Assembly: GCA_944350265.1 (NCBI GenBank)
Contig: CALVOG010000003.1
Location: 25,341 to 89,340, forward strand
Length of the DNA: 64,000 nt
Direction of reading: 5' to 3'
DNA from: an uncultured Clostridia bacterium
GTDB lineage: Bacteria; Bacillota; Clostridia; Christensenellales; UBA1242
Position numbers and translations under genes: made by a program. This document shows, in pieces, positions 29,968 to 38,433 of this stretch. The first letter of the stretch is position 1. Every line of letters starts with the position of its first letter. The notes under the pieces were generated by a model, which did no database searches, was not told the origin of the DNA, and was given only the letters and a program-made list of their open reading frames with translations.

Positions 29968-30189
29968 ATGTTTCACACAAAAACACCTAAAAGCACTTAT
30001 AGCCCTTATAGCAAAGATAAACTGATTGAAGAGATAGTGAACACAATGGCAGAAATAGAAAATCTTAAGACGCCAAAAGATGCTCAAAAACAACTAAAAC
30101 AAAGATTGAAAGAATTACAAAAACAACTTAAAGAAATCGAAAAAGAGGAAAAAAGAGAGGAGCGCTTTGAAAGAAGTATTTTAAGATAA
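29968..30189 (+). CDS. Small coiled-coil hypothetical protein
   Basis: TTGACT...TGCTATAAT promoter, AAGGAGG RBS and a downstream terminator. Confidence 0.75.
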   Translation: MFHTKTPKSTYSPYSKDKLIEEIVNTMAEIENLKTPKDAQKQLKQRLKELQKQLKEIEKEEKREERFERSILR

Positions 30190-30199
30190 TAAATATGAC

Positions 30200-30232
30200 A
30201 AAAAAAGACTTTCGATTGAAAGCCTTTTTTTT
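30200..30232. terminator. Bidirectional intrinsic terminator
   Basis: A7-GACTTTC-gatt-GAAAGCC-T8. Confidence 0.7.
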
Positions 30233-30318
30233 ATAGGAATTTTTATGAATGAAGCAATGTGATATCGGCGAAACGAAGGAGTTGCACTTTGTGCAACAAT
30301 TTCGTTTATTATTTTCAA

Positions 30319-31521
30319 TTACTCGATAATTGAAGAAACAACGCCAGAACCAACCGTTCTTCCGCCTTCACGGATAGCGAAACGGAGACCTTGCTCGATT
30401 GCGATTGGGGTGATAAGAGTGATTGTCATACGAACATTGTCGCCTGGCATAACCATCTCAACGCCCTTTTCAAGGTCGATTGTTCCGGTAACGTCGGTTG
30501 TTCTAAAGTAGAATTGAGGTCTGTAACCATTGAAGAATGGTGTGTGACGACCGCCTTCCTCTTTCTTCAACACGTAAACTTCAGCGGTGAACTTTGTGTG
30601 TGGGTGAATTGAACCTGGTTTGCAGATAACTTGTCCTCTTTCGATTTCGTTTCTTTGAATACCACGAAGAAGAAGACCAACATTATCGCCTGCACGACCC
30701 TCATCCAAAAGTTTTCTAAACATTTCAACGCCAGTGATAACGGTTTGTTTCTTTTGTCCAAGACCAACGATTTCAACAGTGTCATTGATGTGAACAACGC
30801 CTCTTTCAACTCTACCAGTTGCAACGGTTCCACGACCAGTGATTGTGAAAACGTCCTCAACAGGCATAAGGAAAGGCTTGTCGGTGTCACGAGTAGGTTC
30901 TGGGATATAAGAATCCAAAGCGTCCAAAAGTTCTTGGATGCAAGCGCACGCTGGGTCATCAACCTTGCCAGCCTGAGCAGCCTCCAAAGCCTTAAGAGCG
31001 GAGCCCTTGATGATTGGAGTTTTGTCTCCTGGGAAACCATATTCAGTAAGAAGGTCTCTAATTTCCATTTCAACGAGTTCCAAAAGTTCTGGGTCGTCAA
31101 CTTGGTCAGTTTTGTTCATAAACACAACGATGTAAGGAACGCCAACCTGACGAGCGAGAAGGATGTGTTCTCTTGTCTGTGGCATTGGACCATCAGTTGC
31201 AGCAACAACGAGGATAGCACCGTCCATTTGAGCAGCACCGGTAATCATATTTTTAACGTAGTCAGCGTGTCCCGGGCAGTCAACGTGAGCGTAGTGACGC
31301 TTGTCAGTTTGATACTCAACGTGAGCGGTGTTAATTGTGATTCCTCTTGCTTTTTCTTCTGGGGCCTTATCGATTTGGTCGTATCTTTGAGCCTCTGCAA
31401 AACCTTTAAGAGCGGAATAGGTTGTGATTGCCGCTGTTAAGGTTGTTTTACCGTGGTCAACGTGGCCGATGGTTCCAACGTTAACGTGTGGTTTACTTCT
31501 ATCAAATTTTTCTGTAGCCAT
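30319..31521 (-). CDS. tuf: Elongation factor Tu
   Basis: [17 protein letters not shown] and NKTD motifs; near-canonical sequence. Confidence 0.99.
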
Positions 31522-31612
31522 TTTTAAAATCTCCTTTTTTATTTTCTACTATGATATCATAGCACATTTTTTTAAAAAATCAAAACGTTTTTCGCAACTT
31601 TTTTAAAAAATT

Positions 31613-33703
31613 TTAATTTTCAGCCTTTTTTCTTTGTCCAATAATACCTTCAGCGATATTTCTTGGCACTTCGGCATACTTTAAGAACTCCATTGTGAAG
31701 TTTCCGCGCCCTTGCGATTGCGAACGAAGGTCAGTTGCATAACCAAACATTTCGCCAAGTGGCACTTCGGCGTTGACAACTTGCACGCCTGGACGGGTTT
31801 CGTTACCAGTGAGAAGTCCTCGGCGTGAAGTGATGTTACCCATAACAGTGCCGAGGTATTCATCTGGCACTTCCACTTGCACTTTCATAATAGGTTCAAG
31901 AAGCACAGGGTCAGCCTTTGCGCACGCTTCCTTAAACGCCATAGAACCAGCAATCTTAAATGCCATTTCGGAGGAGTCGACTTCGTGGTAAGAACCGTCG
32001 AGAAGGGTTATCTTGTAGTCAACAACTTCGTAACCAGCGAGAATGCCATTTTTTGCCGCCTCTTTGATTCCGTTGAAAACTGGTTGGATATATTCTTTTG
32101 GAATGGAACCGCCCACCGTCTTATCAACAAATCTTTCAGCGTCCTCAAGGTGTGTTCCTGCTGGCACTGGCTCGATGTCGATAACGCAGTGACCGTATTG
32201 ACCTTTACCACCGCTTTGACGAACGAATTTGCCCTCAGCATGAGCAGGTTTTTTGATGGTTTCTTTATATGCAACCTGTGGCGCGCCAACGTTTGCCTCC
32301 ACCTTAAACTCTCTAAGAAGTCTGTCAACGATGATTTCAAGGTGAAGTTCGCCCATACCAGCGATGATGGTTTGACCCGTTTCTTGGTCGGTGTAGGTTT
32401 TGAAAGTTGGGTCCTCTTCGGCAAGTTTCACAAGTGCAAGCACCATTTTTTCTTGCATAAGTTTGGTTTTAGGCTCGATTGCAACGCGAATAACTGGGTC
32501 TGGGAAGTCCATACTCTCTAGAACGATTGGATGTTTTTCGTCGCAAAGAGTTTCACCGGTTATTGTGTCTTTAAGCCCCACAATCGCTGCGATATCGCCC
32601 GCGCCAACCTCTTTGATTTCCTCTCTTTGGTTAGCGTGCATACGAATAAGTCGCCCAACTCTCTCCTTCTCGCCCTTATTTGAGTTATAAACGTAACTTC
32701 CAGCGGTGAGTTTGCCAGAATATACGCGGAAGAAGGCAAGTCTGCCCACGAATGGGTCGGTCATAATCTTAAACGCAAGCCCTGCAAACGGAGCATCCTC
32801 ACTTGGCGCTCTTGTTTCAGTTTCGCCTGTATCTGGGTTCACACCCTCGATATGCTCGATGTCAAGTGGAGATGGAAGATATTCAACCATAGCATCCAAA
32901 AGCATCTGCACGCCCTTATTCTTATAGGAAGAACCGCAAAGAACAGGGGTTAATTTTCTTGAAATTGTGGCGTTACGAATCGCCTTTTTAAGTTCGTCAA
33001 GCGAAATTTCTTCGCCTTCAAAATACTTGGCAAGAAGGTCGTCGTCGGTTTCCACAATCTTTTCAATGATTTCGTCGTGGAGTTGTTGCGCTCTATCCTT
33101 ATAATCGGCTGGGATGTCAGTTACGTCGAACACCTTTCCAAGGTCATCCTCATAGATTTCCGCCTTCATTGTGAGAAGGTCGATAATTCCACTGAAATCA
33201 TCCGCTGAGCCAATTGGCATTTGGATTGGAAGCGGATTGGTTTTAAGTCTTTCTCTTATCGACTCAACACAACCAAAAAAGTCAGCCGCATCTCTATCCA
33301 TTTTGTTCACGTAGATGATTGTTGGCACTTTATATTTTGAAGATTGACGCCAAACAGTTTCGGTTTGTGGTTGAACCTTATCACGCGCGCTTAGAACAAG
33401 CACAGCGCCGTCCAAAACCTTCAAAGAACGCTCAACTTCCACGGTGAAGTCAACGTGTCCTGGGGTGTCGATGATGTTAATCTTGTGGTCTTTCCACCAG
33501 CAAGTTGTGCAGGCAGAGGTGATGGTGATACCACGTTCTTGCTCTTGTGCCATCCAGTCCATTGTTGCTTCGCCGTCGTGCACTTCGCCGATTTTGTGAC
33601 TTTTACCTGTATAGAACAAAATTCTTTCGGTGGTGGTGGTCTTACCAGCGTCGATATGCGCCATAATTCCAACATTGCGCACCATTGTTAAATCGGTAGC
33701 CAT
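31613..33703 (-). CDS. fusA: Elongation factor G
   Basis: [14 protein letters not shown] and GMGELHL motifs; AAGGAG RBS before ATG 33703. Confidence 0.99.
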
Positions 33704-33716
33704 ATTTTTCTCCTTT

Positions 33717-34019
33717 TCAAATTTGTTTTTCTTTCCTTTGGGCAATGAAGTTATGATACTGAGATTTATACTCCTCGCCAAATCTCGCCGTCATAAACCT
33801 CACCCAAAGAATACTGATTCCGTTTTCGTTGTTGTGCCCATCCACATTATTTCCCTTAACCTCGAAGTCCATAAGTGTGTAGGAAAATATTATTCCGCAC
33901 GCCTCTTCGTCGATATAGATTCTGTCACCTATCGCTTCGTATTTTGGGAAATTTTTAACGCCATAGGTTTTTGTGAAGAAGTTTTTAACCTCCTCTTCTT
34001 TTAAGGACTCAACAAACAT
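33717..34019 (-). CDS. Orphan protein inserted in the str operon (DF...FMxxxFGxxY type)
   Basis: 100-aa ORF whose stop codon abuts the fusA RBS; similar to the upstream orphan. Confidence 0.7.
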
Positions 34020-34066
34020 AAACTCTCTTTTTTGACCTATTTTTAAGTATAGGTTTTCTTTTTTAA

Positions 34067-34660
34067 TTATTTGGTTTTGATGCCGTTATTTTCCATAAGG
34101 GCTTTAAACTTTATCGAAAACTTTTCGTATTCGTCGCAATAAGTCTTCCCAAATTTTTTTGACATTTCATTGATGTAAGCATTTTGCGAAGCCTCTTGTT
34201 GTTTCCATTCCTCTTTGCTTATATCAAATCGTATGTTTTTGTTTGAATCAAAACTTATCACTGGAAAATCTTTGGCAATTAGACCTCTATTCATTTTGAA
34301 CGGACGACTTAATAAAAGATTGGTAAAATTTAAATCAAAATCACTTATTGTTATATAGCCTATTTTTCGTGGCTCGGAAGCCTCTTCGCCTATTTTGACA
34401 ATTTTTAAGTGTATAAAATTTCCATTTTTGTAATCTACTTTTTTTATACTGCCATCAACCTTTTTATATTCATAGTCCAAAATTTCATAAAACATACTAT
34501 TTTGCCAATCGCTTGGATAATTCATAATTGTCGATTGTCTTGCAATACTAACAATTTCTTCGTCATCCAAGAGAGACAAATAACGACTATTATTCAGCGG
34601 ATTTTTCAAGCATTCTCTCTTCACATTTTCAGTGTAGCCCTTCATCAATTTACTGCGCAT
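34067..34660 (-). CDS. Orphan protein inserted in the str operon (DF...MxxxFGxxY type)
   Basis: 197-aa AT-rich ORF starting 6 nt after the rpsG stop. Confidence 0.7.
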   Translation of the reverse strand: MRSKLMKGYTENVKRECLKNPLNNSRYLSLLDDEEIVSIARQSTIMNYPSDWQNSMFYEILDYEYKKVDGSIKKVDYKNGNFIHLKIVKIGEEASEPRKIGYITISDFDLNFTNLLLSRPFKMNRGLIAKDFPVISFDSNKNIRFDISKEEWKQQEASQNAYINEMSKKFGKTYCDEYEKFSIKFKALMENNGIKTK

Positions 34661-34666
34661 AATAAA

Positions 34667-35140
34667 TTACCACTTGTAGTGAGCAAAAGCCTTGTTTGCT
34701 TCTGCCATTCTGTGCATTTCATCTCTCTTCTTAATGGAAGCGCCTGTGTTATTGTATGCATCCATAAGTTCGCCAGCAAGTTTTGCATCCATATTTCTTT
34801 CGCCTGTTCTTTTTCTTGCGTTATTCACAATCCAGCGGATGGCAAGAGTTTGACGACGTTCTGGTCTTATCTCCATAGGAACTTGGTAAGTTGCACCGCC
34901 AACGCGACGACCTTTTGTTTCAAGCATAGGCTTCACATTTTCAATCGCTGTGAGGCAAACGTCAAGGCTGTCTAAACTTGTCTTTTCCTTAATAATGTCA
35001 AATGCACCATAAACTATTCTTTGCGCTAAGCCTTTTTTTCCATCAAGCATAACTTGGTTAACAAGTTTTGTGACAACTTTGTTGTTGTAGATTGGGTCTG
35101 GCAAAACGTCTTTCTTAACCGCACATTTTCTTCTTGGCAT
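34667..35140 (-). CDS. rpsG: 30S ribosomal protein S7
   Basis: MPRR...[11 protein letters not shown]...[11 protein letters not shown]. Confidence 0.99.
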
Positions 35141-35234
35141 TTTTCTTTCTCCTTTTAACTAAATTTTCTAAAAACAAAATCATTTCGGCTCAAAAAGCCC
35201 TAACCCTAAAAATGACTTCGCCCGCCCAAAAAGA

Positions 35235-35609
35235 TTACTTCTTAGGTCTTTTTGCGCCATATTTTGAACGGCCTTGTTTTCTGTTTGCAACGCCTGCTGT
35301 GTCAAGCGTTCCGCGAATGATGTGGTATCTCACACCTGGCAGGTCCTTAACACGTCCGCCACGAACAAGCACAACGCTGTGCTCTTGGAGGTTGTGACCG
35401 ATTCCTGGGATATAGCAAGTTCCCTCTTGTCCATTAGAAAGTTTAACTCTCGCAATCTTACGAAGAGCAGAGTTAGGCTTTTTTGGTGTTGCGGTTCTCA
35501 CCGACAAGCAAACACCACGCTTTTGAGGGCATTCCTCTAAGAGCGGAGCCTTCTTCTTTTTCTCAAAAGTTTTGCGACCTTTTCTAACTAACTGGTTAAA
35601 TGTAGGCAT
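35235..35609 (-). CDS. rpsL: 30S ribosomal protein S12
   Basis: [18 protein letters not shown] and [10 protein letters not shown] motifs. Confidence 0.99.
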
Positions 35610-35887
35610 CATCTTTCTCCTTTTAAAAAATTTCAGTTTTAAATCATAATGGATTTGTCAAACGCAAATTCGGCTTTCTTTATGGTTATGCGCTAAAACA
35701 ACAAACGCACATCCATAAAAAAAGACGCGAATTTCGCGCCAAAAAATATGCTAATATGGGCAAACACGAACAGCACAATCGAAAATTCGACTTCAAAACC
35801 AAAGAGGTTTCAAATCGGTGAGCAAAAAGCCACCTGCCGTTTGTTTATGCGATTAAGCATATGTCTCCGACAACGAAACACGCTTTT

Positions 35888-35916
35888 ATTATACACATAC
35901 GCCTTGCCATTGTCAA
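35888..35916 (-). promoter_or_regulatory. SigA promoter of the str operon
   Basis: TTGACA-17-TATAAT about 270 nt upstream of rpsL. Confidence 0.8.
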
Positions 35917-36159
35917 GCATTTTTCAAAATTATAATAAACTTTTTCTCCAAATTGATAGAATGAGATGTGTGCCTTTTTAAGAAAAAATGGCGGAGAAAC
36001 AGCACGCCACTCCCTATGGCTCGCTTATCGACCCGTCTGTGTCGCTTTTTCTGGAATGTGTTAGACGAATATATCAAGTGTTATCTTTACTAGAGTTGCA
36101 CTTTAAAGAAAATTCAACTCAAAAATGACAAACTGGATGTAAAAAATGTAATTATTTTT

Positions 36160-37158
36160 TTAAACCTTTTCTAGTCGGGCTTGTTCCAGTCTCTTTCTAT
36201 ACTTTTCCTTCTTCTTTAAATATTTTGCATACAAATCATTGACGTTTTCGAGGTTGCCTTTAAGTTCTGCAAGCGCTTCCCACACAGCGGTTTCGCTATG
36301 CCCTAGCCTTGTTGCGATTTCCCGCCCTCTAAGAGTTGGATTCTCAAATGAACACGTTGCAATCTCGCGCTTAACCAATGACATATCGCGCGTGAGGTAG
36401 TCAAACAGAAATTCCCGCCCGCAATGTTTTTCCACTAAGCCGTAAAGCCTCTCTCTTTTCTCGCTTCGACTCACCGTCAGCAGGTTAAAATTCGCCATTT
36501 CAAGTAAACTTTCTGGCGAGGTGCCATTTTCAAACAAAAACTGCACACAACGCGTTGCATCTTTAAGCATCAGCCTTGCATACTCTTTCGTGCATCCAAA
36601 GCTCTGTGCGATTTGCGAGAGTGGCTTGTCCAAATAATAATGTTCAGCAAACACCCTCGCCTGCTTTTTTGGAAGATGTGGCAAGATTTTTTCCTTGATA
36701 AACCTTAACTCCAAATTCGCATCGGCTTGCTCGTTATCAATTTTAAGTATCTCACCAAATTCCTTCGAATTTTCGTCTAAATCGCCCAAACTTTCCACCT
36801 TGTATGGGCAAACATCCTTCATAAAGTGGGTGCTTTTTCTAAAAATGGCAATGCCAAGATAGGTGGAAAAAGAGGTGGACATATTCAAATCGAAGCCCTC
36901 AATCGCTTTCATAACCGTTTCGTAATAACTCTCAAGTAAATCCTCTTTCGACGGAAAATAAACGCCGTTATCTCTTAAATTACCCTCGCAAACGCCAAGC
37001 ACAAGTTTTTTAACAAGCCTAAGATTGCCCGCAAAAATTTTATCCCTAATCTTTTTGTCTTTCGTTTCCTTATAGAGTTTCAACAGCCTCAAATTTTCTT
37101 CTTTTGAGAGTGCTGGTGGCAACTTTCTCCAAAGGTTATATCTATGTAATATTTCCAT
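36160..37158 (-). CDS. Sigma-70-family (SigE/SigK-like) protein with one extra C-terminal HTH
   Basis: LPPALSKEEN..GNLRLV..EDLLE..AIEGFD..SFSTY; region 4 LSQIAQSFGCTKEYAR; second HTH RGREIATRLGHSETAV. Confidence 0.8.
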   Translation of the reverse strand: MEILHRYNLWRKLPPALSKEENLRLLKLYKETKDKKIRDKIFAGNLRLVKKLVLGVCEGNLRDNGVYFPSKEDLLESYYETVMKAIEGFDLNMSTSFSTYLGIAIFRKSTHFMKDVCPYKVESLGDLDENSKEFGEILKIDNEQADANLELRFIKEKILPHLPKKQARVFAEHYYLDKPLSQIAQSFGCTKEYARLMLKDATRCVQFLFENGTSPESLLEMANFNLLTVSRSEKRERLYGLVEKHCGREFLFDYLTRDMSLVKREIATCSFENPTLRGREIATRLGHSETAVWEALAELKGNLENVNDLYAKYLKKKEKYRKRLEQARLEKV

Positions 37159-37161
37159 CTT

Positions 37162-38433
37162 TCACCCCTCTTCTTTCTCGCGTTCACCTAAAATTTTTGA
37201 ATGGATGGTGTTTTCACGTTCTTTTTCCAAATATTTTTTAAGACGCGCAATTCGGTGAGAATACTCAGTTTCGCATAACCCGCACTTTTTGGCAAGTTCT
37301 CTTTGCGTTTCGCCGTTATAGCCCAAAATTCCATATTCTAGCACCAAAGCGTTTCGCTTATCCTTCAAGTTTGGCAAGAAGTAGTGTCTTAGAGCCTCCT
37401 CACCACCCACGCTCGCCACAAATTTTTTCATCTTTTCCACCTTCCCCAAACTCTTTTTCTTCTTTTCAACCACAATTTTCTCTTTGGAAGGTTCTTCACC
37501 ACGAAGATATTTTTCATAATATATATCGCCATACTTTTCAAGTTTAAAATAGACATCTCTTAAACTCGACGTGGTGTTGTTGTTCTTTTCGTTAAGTTCG
37601 CGCGCTATATCAACAAGTTTTCCTCTTTCTTCGGCGAGAATTGCGCGTTCAAAGATAAATCTTTGCCTGTCGGTCAAGGTGTGAACAAAATACTTTTCAA
37701 AAAAATCTCTGCCATATTTTTCAATATCGAATTTCTCACGCCAATGGATGCTATATTTGGGAGTTTCAGTCGCAACATCATTAAGTTCGCCCGTTTCAAA
37801 GAGGTTTTTGGTGTGGAATTTTGCCATTTTCAGTCTCTTTCGAACGGCCTCGCGCGAACAGTTTTTCTCATTAGCGATTTTTTGCAAGGTCTTATTCTTA
37901 AAAAAGTAGTCAACAAAAACTTGCCTTTCCGCCTCTGGCAACTTTGGCAAAATTTCCTTCTTAATAATCTCCACCGCCACCTTATCTTCATAGTTAAGAT
38001 AGTCAAAGTCGAAAAGCATAGCTAAAAATGTGCTTCTTTCGTCCTCGTCCATAGGCGCATCCAAACTTTGCGTCACGTGAACAGAAGAGTCTTCGCCCAC
38101 AACAAATCGGCTTATTGAGTTTTTCACTGCTGTGCTTAAATAGGAAGAAAAGGAGGTGCCTAGTTCTGCGTTAAAAAGGTCGATTGCGCGAAGAAGCGCC
38201 CACGCGCCCTCTTCAAGTAGGTCCTCATTTTCTGGGTAAATTGGGCTTTGATAGTGAAGAAATTTTTTGCAGTAACGCGTCACGCACATACAAACAAAAC
38301 GGAGATTGCCATCAAAAATCCTTTCGCGCAAATTTTCATCGCGCGATTTTGAATATTCACGTAATAACCTTAAATTTTCCTCTTTTGAGAGCGCTGGTGG
38401 CAAAGACTCCCAAAAGTCCAATCTATTTTTCAT
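37162..38433 (-). CDS. Sigma-70-family (SigE/SigK-like) protein with two extra C-terminal HTHs
   Basis: LPPALSKEEN..GNLRFV..EDLLEEG..AIDLFN..SFSSY..SLDAPM; HTHs TLQKIANEKNCSREAVR, LVDIARELN and TQRELAKKCG. Confidence 0.8.
   Translation of the reverse strand: MKNRLDFWESLPPALSKEENLRLLREYSKSRDENLRERIFDGNLRFVCMCVTRYCKKFLHYQSPIYPENEDLLEEGAWALLRAIDLFNAELGTSFSSYLSTAVKNSISRFVVGEDSSVHVTQSLDAPMDEDERSTFLAMLFDFDYLNYEDKVAVEIIKKEILPKLPEAERQVFVDYFFKNKTLQKIANEKNCSREAVRKRLKMAKFHTKNLFETGELNDVATETPKYSIHWREKFDIEKYGRDFFEKYFVHTLTDRQRFIFERAILAEERGKLVDIARELNEKNNNTTSSLRDVYFKLEKYGDIYYEKYLRGEEPSKEKIVVEKKKKSLGKVEKMKKFVASVGGEEALRHYFLPNLKDKRNALVLEYGILGYNGETQRELAKKCGLCETEYSHRIARLKKYLEKERENTIHSKILGEREKEEG

Follow-up and report, generated by a model that had tools for sequence, protein, structure and literature searches.

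Two genes between rpsG and fusA

Two small open reading frames (ORFs), ORF197 and ORF100, lie between rpsG and fusA in a 64,000-nucleotide (nt) stretch of DNA from an uncultured Clostridia bacterium (contig CALVOG010000003.1, positions 25,341 to 89,340 of the forward strand), called here the window; positions are counted from its first letter. The genome that holds the window (G000) comprises 1.116 Mb in 18 contigs, with a GC content of 0.406. We refer to the interval between rpsG, which encodes ribosomal protein S7, and fusA, which encodes elongation factor G (EF-G), as the slot, to ORF197 and its relatives as the long form and to ORF100 and its relatives as the short form. The features of the locus, defined as ORFs unless stated otherwise, are:

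34067-34660, minus strand: ORF197, long form, 197 amino acids (aa)
34610-34660, minus strand: first ~17 codons of ORF197 with its start codon, inherited from a resident micro-ORF that related species have behind rpsG (DNA and protein alignments to locus L016 of genome G084)
34020-34066, minus strand: 47-nt inter-ORF spacer with a short inverted repeat and a weak GAGAG ribosome-binding site (direct reading)
33717-34019, minus strand: ORF100, short form, 100 aa
33704-33716, minus strand: Shine-Dalgarno sequence AAGGAG and ATG of fusA, intact directly behind the ORF100 stop
34667-35140, minus strand: rpsG (ribosomal protein S7), upstream flank of the slot
ATG at 33706, end at 31613, minus strand: fusA (EF-G), downstream flank of the slot
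35235-35612, minus strand: rpsL
30319-31521, minus strand: tuf

The gene order on the minus strand is rpsL-rpsG-ORF197-ORF100-fusA-tuf. Six nucleotides separate the rpsG stop from the ATG of ORF197. At the other end, the ORF100 stop directly abuts the AAGGAG of fusA, whose ATG is located 10 nt past that stop; the same AAGGAG string precedes fusA in G084, a genome without the insert. A consensus scan found no terminator-like site on the minus strand from rpsG to fusA (33700-34700), and promoter-like matches within the slot reached 9 of 12 consensus positions at best. An earlier reading made from the letters of the window only (the sequence-only reading) had described this single-strand order and these spacings, and had seen no clear terminator between rpsG and fusA: ORF coordinates and direct reading of the sequence bear out the former, the consensus scan the latter. 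The composition of the insert is atypical. GC content is 0.29-0.33 across ORF197 compared to 0.43-0.49 in the flanks; taken whole, ORF197 has a GC content of 0.316 (2.3rd percentile of the ORFs of the genome) and ORF100 of 0.383 (13.7th percentile), with GC at third codon positions (GC3) of 0.325 and 0.480, respectively.

The arrangement recurs in independent data. Among the 24 sequencing runs listed as holding the locus, 20 are chicken-gut metagenomes, from 10 studies. A 1200-nt contig from a DNA run of a different study covers positions 33519-34718 without gaps, at 21 differences from the window. In metagenome contig L062 the order is rpsL-rpsG-ORF197-ORF100-fusA, and protein identities are 92% for ORF197 and 97% for ORF100. 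The 126-kb contig L063 shows the same gene order and encodes an ORF100 protein identical to that of the window, together with an ORF197 reduced to a 20-codon stub by a 374-nt frameshifting deletion. Since independent contigs carry the same junction, it is real and no assembly artefact; misassembly, a danger raised by the sequence-only reading itself, is ruled out by these three contigs. The L063 deletion (L063:3001-3220) begins right behind the ~17 codons that come from the micro-ORF. Apart from this deletion and from mutually compensating indels, the small indels that distinguish strain variants in the slot are confined to the inter-ORF spacer. The long form is dispensable, being broken in one natural strain, that of L063.

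A 1144-nt contig assembled from a metatranscriptome run spans positions 33692-34833, from the start of fusA through both ORFs and into rpsG; its four indels are located in the inter-ORF spacer or compensate each other. This contig is consistent with co-transcription of the two genes with the operon, as the sequence-only reading had supposed, and the slot lies where read-through from the str promoter is expected. It falls short of proof because RNA libraries can hold DNA, so that carry-over is possible, and because the contigs show no transcript ends. Another metatranscriptome contig (run X16) joins position 33721 to 34665 and so skips exactly both ORFs (943 nt). We considered this joint as an empty-site allele and rejected it: its shorter side comprises 30 letters only, and the contig could belong to a related species that lacks the insert.

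In several metagenome-assembled genomes of the genus, contigs end a few to a few hundred bases from rpsG (G070:C26, G017:C39, G019:C29, G021:C29, G062:C41, G067:C27 and others). The closest species, G070, whose rpsG is 99% identical, is uninformative about the junction because its contig ends 5 nt past the rpsG stop and the start of fusA was not found. The slot seems hard to assemble, perhaps because of strain differences there.

Substitutions between strains were then used to evaluate coding status, with the ratio of nonsynonymous to synonymous substitution rates (dN/dS) as the measure. ORF197 differs from its L062 counterpart by 26 nucleotides and 15 amino acids (dN/dS 0.31) and ORF100 by 10 nucleotides and 3 amino acids (dN/dS 0.21); all five differences between the ORF100 genes of the window and of L063 are synonymous (dN/dS 0). 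The comparison genes rpsG and rpsL gave 0.023-0.026. In a collection of 5.8 billion protein clusters, ORF197 is represented by 15 clusters at 92-95% identity, 13 of them full length, and ORF100 by its own cluster only. By these comparisons, ORF197 and ORF100 are real protein-coding genes under purifying selection, in agreement with open frames of this length in DNA of 32-38% GC and with an intact frame in homologs of 36-54% identity from six other species. Synonymous divergence between strains (dS) is ~0.10 in both cargo genes versus 0.22-0.24 in rpsG and 0.14-0.15 in rpsL, all from small counts; the lower cargo values could mean that the cargo spread among strains after the strains had diverged.

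A variable slot and its contents across relatives

We found rpsG in 59 of 61 genus genomes, including all 48 of good quality. We fetched 30 genus loci with rpsG; fusA follows downstream in 27, the other three ending at a contig edge. Across these 27 loci the rpsG-fusA spacer varies from 67 to 1013 nt, with 8 spacers below 140 nt and 13 above 300 nt. Its contents are mutually unrelated: nothing, a micro-ORF, the long form, a repeat element, a SnoaL-like ORF or a 92-aa ORF. Comparison of the junction across relatives, a check put forward by the sequence-only reading, thus found it variable in both length and content.

The micro-ORF, of 47-59 aa and rich in Lys and Glu, is present in 7 of the 27 spacers and in G116, and its copies are mutually similar by BLASTP. 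It stands after rpsG (loci L016, L017, L018, L020, L026, L030, L033 and L046), starting in most copies within ~6 nt of the rpsG stop. The four copies scanned, out of eight, gave no Pfam match; it may be a real small protein made together with S7 and EF-G. The repeat element, GC-richer and ~120-270 nt long, is common to five spacers (L032, L019, L025, L037, L041), has no Rfam match, and is present in L032 as two 271-nt copies with 97.8% identity. The match of the SnoaL-like ORF (122 aa; E=2.3e-4) remains below Pfam's cut-off.

One of these loci shows how ORF197 acquired its start. In G084 (L016), the spacer measures 198 nt and contains the micro-ORF only. Because homology to the window covers rpsG through codon ~15 of ORF197 and resumes at the fusA ribosome-binding site, ORF197 in G000 is a fusion in which the resident micro-ORF supplied the start codon and ~17 residues. 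The other long forms start at a Met typical of the family (M-[FY]-[IL]-x-x-L), and G000 has no Met at this position. No direct or inverted repeats flanking the insert were found. With conserved flanks, a content that differs between close relatives and a patchy, atypical cargo, the rpsG-fusA junction behaves as a hotspot for accessory genes.

To describe the distribution of the two forms we used a profile built on an alignment of nine long-form proteins (A1) and a mixed profile of long and short forms (A2). A full HMMER scan of 1.84 billion representatives with ORF197 gave 7 relatives at E<=0.001. Six of 154 genus genomes carry the long form (G000, G075, G175, G116, G081 and G156), and in all five other than G000 it is located between rpsG and fusA, each time with no accompanying short form. 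ORF100 itself was found in 1 of the 154, G000. When A1 was run over 401 genomes of the bacterial family, it added G282, from another genus (E=5e-60), and, elsewhere in the bacterial family, five genomes of other genera with weak matches at the C-terminus. From rpsG to fusA, G282 has first a 104-aa gene and then a 188-aa long form. The 104-aa gene is homologous to ORF100 over its full length (BLASTP E=2e-11, 29% identity), and the ribosome-binding site of fusA lies inside the last codons of the long form, the fusA ATG being 1 nt past its stop. In G191, another species of the genus of G282, the slot is occupied by the short form only.

The slot therefore holds 7 of 7 genomic long forms and 3 of 3 ORF100-type short forms, in the arrangements long alone, micro-ORF plus long, long plus short (G000), short plus long (G282) and short alone (G191). 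A2 gave 0 matches across 41 other families of the order (380 genomes), and 8 proteins at E<=0.001 in the 5.8-billion collection; a search for related loci with ORF197 among genome contigs found nothing. Distant relatives of 84-177 aa with the same C-terminal FGxxY helix motif are present at other loci (L054-L058) in other genera of the bacterial family, one of them convergent to rplK-rplA on the opposite strand. In the searches made, the protein family is confined to one family of gut Clostridia with genomes of roughly 1 Mb. The description of the two genes as orphans is not maintained, the long form having relatives in six other species genomes and the short form in two.

The cargo diverges faster than its flanks. 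Identity of long forms to ORF197 is 36-54%, compared to 76-97% for rpsG and 76-95% for the first 300 residues of EF-G. Similarities of cargo and flanks are also incongruent. Between G000 and G116, the nearest pair by flanks, the flank proteins are 95-97% identical and the long forms only 52%; between G116 and G075 the long forms are 80% identical and fusA 87%. G075 and G175 (L044 and L045) have long forms with 91% protein identity. Because their rpsG genes are identical over 474 of 474 nt and the first 900 nt of fusA only 90.3% identical, the contrast points to a putative recombination breakpoint at or near the slot.

Relationship and features of the long and short forms

The sequence-only reading had taken ORF197 and ORF100 for paralogs on the basis of three motifs shared in the same order. 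Pairwise BLASTP does not reach significance for the two proteins (E=0.072, with an alignment that differs from the one proposed), nor does it for the long and short forms of G282 (E=5.7). Profiles are more sensitive. Compared to ORF100 with hhalign, A1 gave E=1.6e-4 and a probability of 50% over 24 C-terminal columns; compared to an independent short-form alignment (ORF100, its L062 variant and the G282 short form), it gave E=5.5e-4 and a probability of 30% over the same 24 columns. The A1 hidden Markov model (HMM) scored ORF100 at 15.9 bits, rank 1 of 5001 when ORF100 was placed among 5000 shuffles, and matched it colinearly at both termini. With A6, a short-form alignment of wider membership, the probability rose to 95.8% (E=7.2e-9, 132 columns), a figure that is inflated for the C-terminal part because five of its nine rows were recruited through profiles containing long forms (three through A1, two through the mixed A2).

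The N-terminal motif, which is located where it would be expected, played no part in recruitment to A6. Its score in ORF100 was reached by 20 of 1000 shuffles, that of L056 by 0 of 1000 and that of L055 by 8 of 1000; in the other five distinct sequences it failed to beat shuffles. In the G282 pair, both genes start MFIE.L and their first 18 nucleotides agree at 16. Taken together, the long and short forms are probably paralogs, whose relation, to judge from the match of only 24 C-terminal columns in the independent comparison and from their different GC and GC3, is old and distant and not a recent duplication. Of the three proposed motifs, the N-terminal and C-terminal ones were recovered by profiles. 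The middle pairing of ITISDFDL with YTLMDFEV was not: alignments pair MDFEV of ORF100 with LIAKDFP, located later in ORF197.

The family plan comprises an N-terminal helix, [FY]-[ILV]-x-x-L-x-x-x-[DE]; a variable middle, in which the long form has ~90 extra residues with HYPxxW and GYxxxSDxxxxFxN; and a hydrophobic-D-F strand followed by a C-terminal helix, [FY]xxxMxxxFGxxYxxxY. Columns that are invariant in the long form hold P, G, D, F, N and F, without a Cys or His pattern. The proteins are hydrophilic and soluble, without transmembrane segment, encoded by AT-rich genes and rich in K, E and N; their isoelectric points (pI) range from 4.9 to 9.5. In G000, ORF197 has a pI of 8.97 and ORF100 is acidic (5.39). 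For G282, the corresponding values are 9.52 for P0021, a near-full-length counterpart of its long form, and 5.46 for the short form. The combination of a basic long and an acidic short form in both pair-holding genomes is only a hint, because n=2 and each form is also found alone. A complex prediction for the long form (residues 26-197, A1) with the short form (A6) gave a score of 0.20 against a mark of 0.32 and is neutral on binding.

Searches of Pfam, NCBIfam, PADLOC and PHROGs with both ORFs and the family gave only chance-level matches, in agreement with the earlier description of the family as uncharacterised. Among Pfam toxin and antitoxin domains, nothing was found beyond single chance-level matches. 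In PADLOC, ORF100 weakly matched PD-Lambda-2_A (E=0.007 over 40 residues), at chance level. Phage records gave no match to ORF100 or ORF197, and viral contigs no relative of P0019. AlphaFold single-sequence models of the two ORFs had mean confidence (pLDDT) values of 43.1 and 46.9, and Foldseek searches with these low-confidence models returned nothing at E<=0.001, with template modelling (TM) scores <0.3; structure prediction, also suggested beforehand, thus brought no fold match. ESM Atlas gave no usable match for ORF197 or P0024, and language-model recognition scores were low. No description of such an rpsG-fusA slot appears in the titles and abstract openings of the literature found.

Possible roles of the cargo and known systems

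The explanation that we favour, though with confidence that is only about even, is that ORF197 and ORF100 are accessory cargo of one small unnamed family, held in a variable slot inside the operon and expressed by read-through. Under this explanation the two genes would have neither promoter nor terminator of their own and would be transcribed by read-through from the str promoter; ORF197 would be translated by re-initiation 6 nt past the rpsG stop, and ORF100 from its own weak ribosome-binding site. Recombination in the conserved flanks, with no mobile element, would account for gain, loss and exchange of cargo. The proteins would be non-enzymatic binding proteins, whose middle, variable and beta-rich, lies between an N-terminal helix and a conserved C-terminal one, and would serve a niche or conflict-type function with no core role in translation. 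Binding rather than catalysis is suggested because they have no conserved residues of catalytic type and their pI is variable. The sequence-only reading had left open whether the genes are linked to translation or exploit the strong promoter. The data lean to exploitation of the operon, because the spacer is hypervariable, 148 of the 154 genus genomes searched are without the genes and the long form is broken in one strain; the fidelity to the slot keeps a link to translation open. As a whole, that interpretation is borne out in part.

Several points weigh against the cargo explanation. The evidence from RNA libraries is an assembled contig that may contain DNA, so that transcription is reached by inference. 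The family as a whole is not slot-bound, only its close members being so, because the distant relatives with the C-terminal motif lie at other loci. Sliding-window identities in G116 revealed no donor-like mosaic beside the junction. Fidelity to the slot across two genera, whose rpsG is only 76% identical, appears hard to explain by recombination in the flanks alone, and would also fit a function tied to the operon. The single-sequence structure models are unusable at these pLDDT values, and the molecular function is deduced only from the missing catalytic-type residues and the spread of pI from 4.9 to 9.5.

The alternative that survives best, which we nevertheless judge rather unlikely, is an accessory factor linked to translation, which would bind the ribosome, S7 or EF-G and be kept in the slot for co-production. 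It would account for the presence of all seven long forms and all three ORF100-type short forms of known context in one slot, in two genera and several arrangements, as well as for their tight integration, exemplified by the fusA ribosome-binding site inside the G282 long form. Purifying selection on both genes and the distant relative adjoining rplK-rplA, on the opposite strand though, go in the same direction. However, the genes were not found in those 148 genus genomes searched, and the long form is broken in a natural strain with an otherwise near-identical operon. In addition, the identities of 36-54%, compared to 76-97% for S7 and EF-G, indicate an evolution too rapid for a protein that partners conserved machinery, net charge varies between members, no match to FusB/FBP or any ribosome-associated family was obtained, and the slots of other species have unrelated contents. 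A more specific form of this idea, which we consider doubtful, makes the family a lineage-specific exchangeable component of translation: paralogs would dock on S7, EF-G or the ribosome, and would evolve fast under pressure on translocation, for example from a phage factor or a gut antibiotic. Docking of this kind would be the reason why all close members of known context occupy exactly this slot.

A conflict module (toxin-immunity, toxin-antitoxin or anti-phage) constantly expressed from the str promoter, with the basic long form as effector and the acidic short form as neutraliser, is unlikely. It would fit the opposite charges of the two forms in both pair-holding genomes, the loss in L063 of the long form only, with the short form unchanged, and the fast evolution, patchy distribution and atypical GC; ORF100 also has the weak PD-Lambda-2_A match. 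Against this, pairing is not obligatory, since the long form occurs without the short one in five genomes and the short form alone in G191, and the partners would be paralogs, which is unusual for such pairs. Moreover, no known toxin, antitoxin or defence domain was found, the slot has no promoter of its own beyond 9-of-12 consensus matches, and the PADLOC match covers 40 residues only, at chance level. Finally, functionless passengers, that is ORFs of recent origin or in decay that may have arisen in the AT-rich spacer and are tolerated in a permissive slot, are very improbable: the narrow distribution (7 matches in 1.84 billion representatives), the low pLDDT values (43 and 47) and language-model scores, the deletion in one strain, the AT-rich genes and the K/E/N-rich proteins would agree with such an origin, but dN/dS is well below 1 in both genes, with 5 of 5 differences synonymous between the ORF100 copies of the window and L063, the reading frames remain intact between species and genera at identities of 29-54%, and both ends hold conserved motifs.

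The common view of the str operon is that of a fixed block. Across a whole genus of reduced gut Clostridia its rpsG-fusA junction proves variable, and one unnamed family returns to the slot in several forms, fitted in so closely that ribosome-binding sites are shared and a start codon is borrowed. If the cargo explanation is true, streamlined, promoter-poor genomes can try new genes inside essential operons; if the proteins are instead tied to translation, S7 or EF-G would have a new partner, one that is not universal. In both cases the family offers a small, concrete and testable target, with two proteins, natural strains that have or lack the long form, and a metatranscriptome in which the locus is present.

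Other features were noted upstream in the window. On the minus strand, a perfect TTGACA-17-TATAAT promoter match is present at 35916-35888, upstream of rpsL, and a terminator-like hairpin with a T run at 35740-35724, inside the ~275-nt leader before rpsL; this hairpin could be an attenuator of the str operon. Rfam gave no match in positions 30000-36500 of the window, in the rpsL leader or in the loci of five relatives. Further upstream, adjacent minus-strand ORFs of 332 aa (36160-37158) and 423 aa (37162-38433) have a common N-terminal stretch, LPPALSKEENLRLL, and look like tandem paralogs.

The proteins were compared to known families and the locus to known types of insertion. The mixed profile A2 weakly matched Pcc1, a subunit of archaeal KEOPS: 5 of its 7 PDB matches at E<=10 were Pcc1 entries (8up5, 7a67, 3enc, 8unk, 5jmv), the best at E=9.7e-4 and the others up to 0.93, covering the HYPxxW...YEIL...beta-hairpin region. 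The best score is the sum over the two repeats of a fused dimer, each with an independent E-value (i-E) of about 5. In contrast, a PDB sequence search with A1 gave nothing relevant and no Pcc1, and no Pcc1 family was among the Pfam matches of 15 members at E<=0.5. The resemblance is probably due to chance or to a shared simple alpha/beta motif.

FusB, FusC and FBP are cytoplasmic EF-G-binding proteins of ~200 aa with a conserved four-cysteine zinc site. ORF197 is likewise a small cytoplasmic protein of about that size, encoded near fusA and conceivably acting on EF-G. Its family differs in having no Pfam match to the FBP domain (E<=1 for both ORFs, E<=0.5 for 15 members) and 0-5 cysteines, none of them conserved, and an identity with FusB/FBP was rejected on these two grounds. 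Phage morons are extra genes slipped into co-oriented clusters, usually with their own promoter and terminator. ORF197 and ORF100 resemble them as extra genes of odd composition inside a tight co-oriented cluster; in contrast to morons, neither gene has its own promoter or terminator, and the phage searches gave no relatives.

The locus is best compared to the accessory-gene hotspots, or 'islets', between core genes, a concept that comes from comparative genomics of E. coli and Listeria (PMC2617782, PMC3556495). Islets and the rpsG-fusA slot have in common conserved core flanks, a content that varies between close relatives, an atypical cargo composition, and gain, loss and replacement without a visible mobile element. 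The slot is distinguished by its location inside an essential, highly expressed operon, by a co-oriented cargo that is without its own promoter or terminator and is spliced in right up to ribosome-binding sites, and by one cargo gene whose start was taken from a resident micro-ORF.

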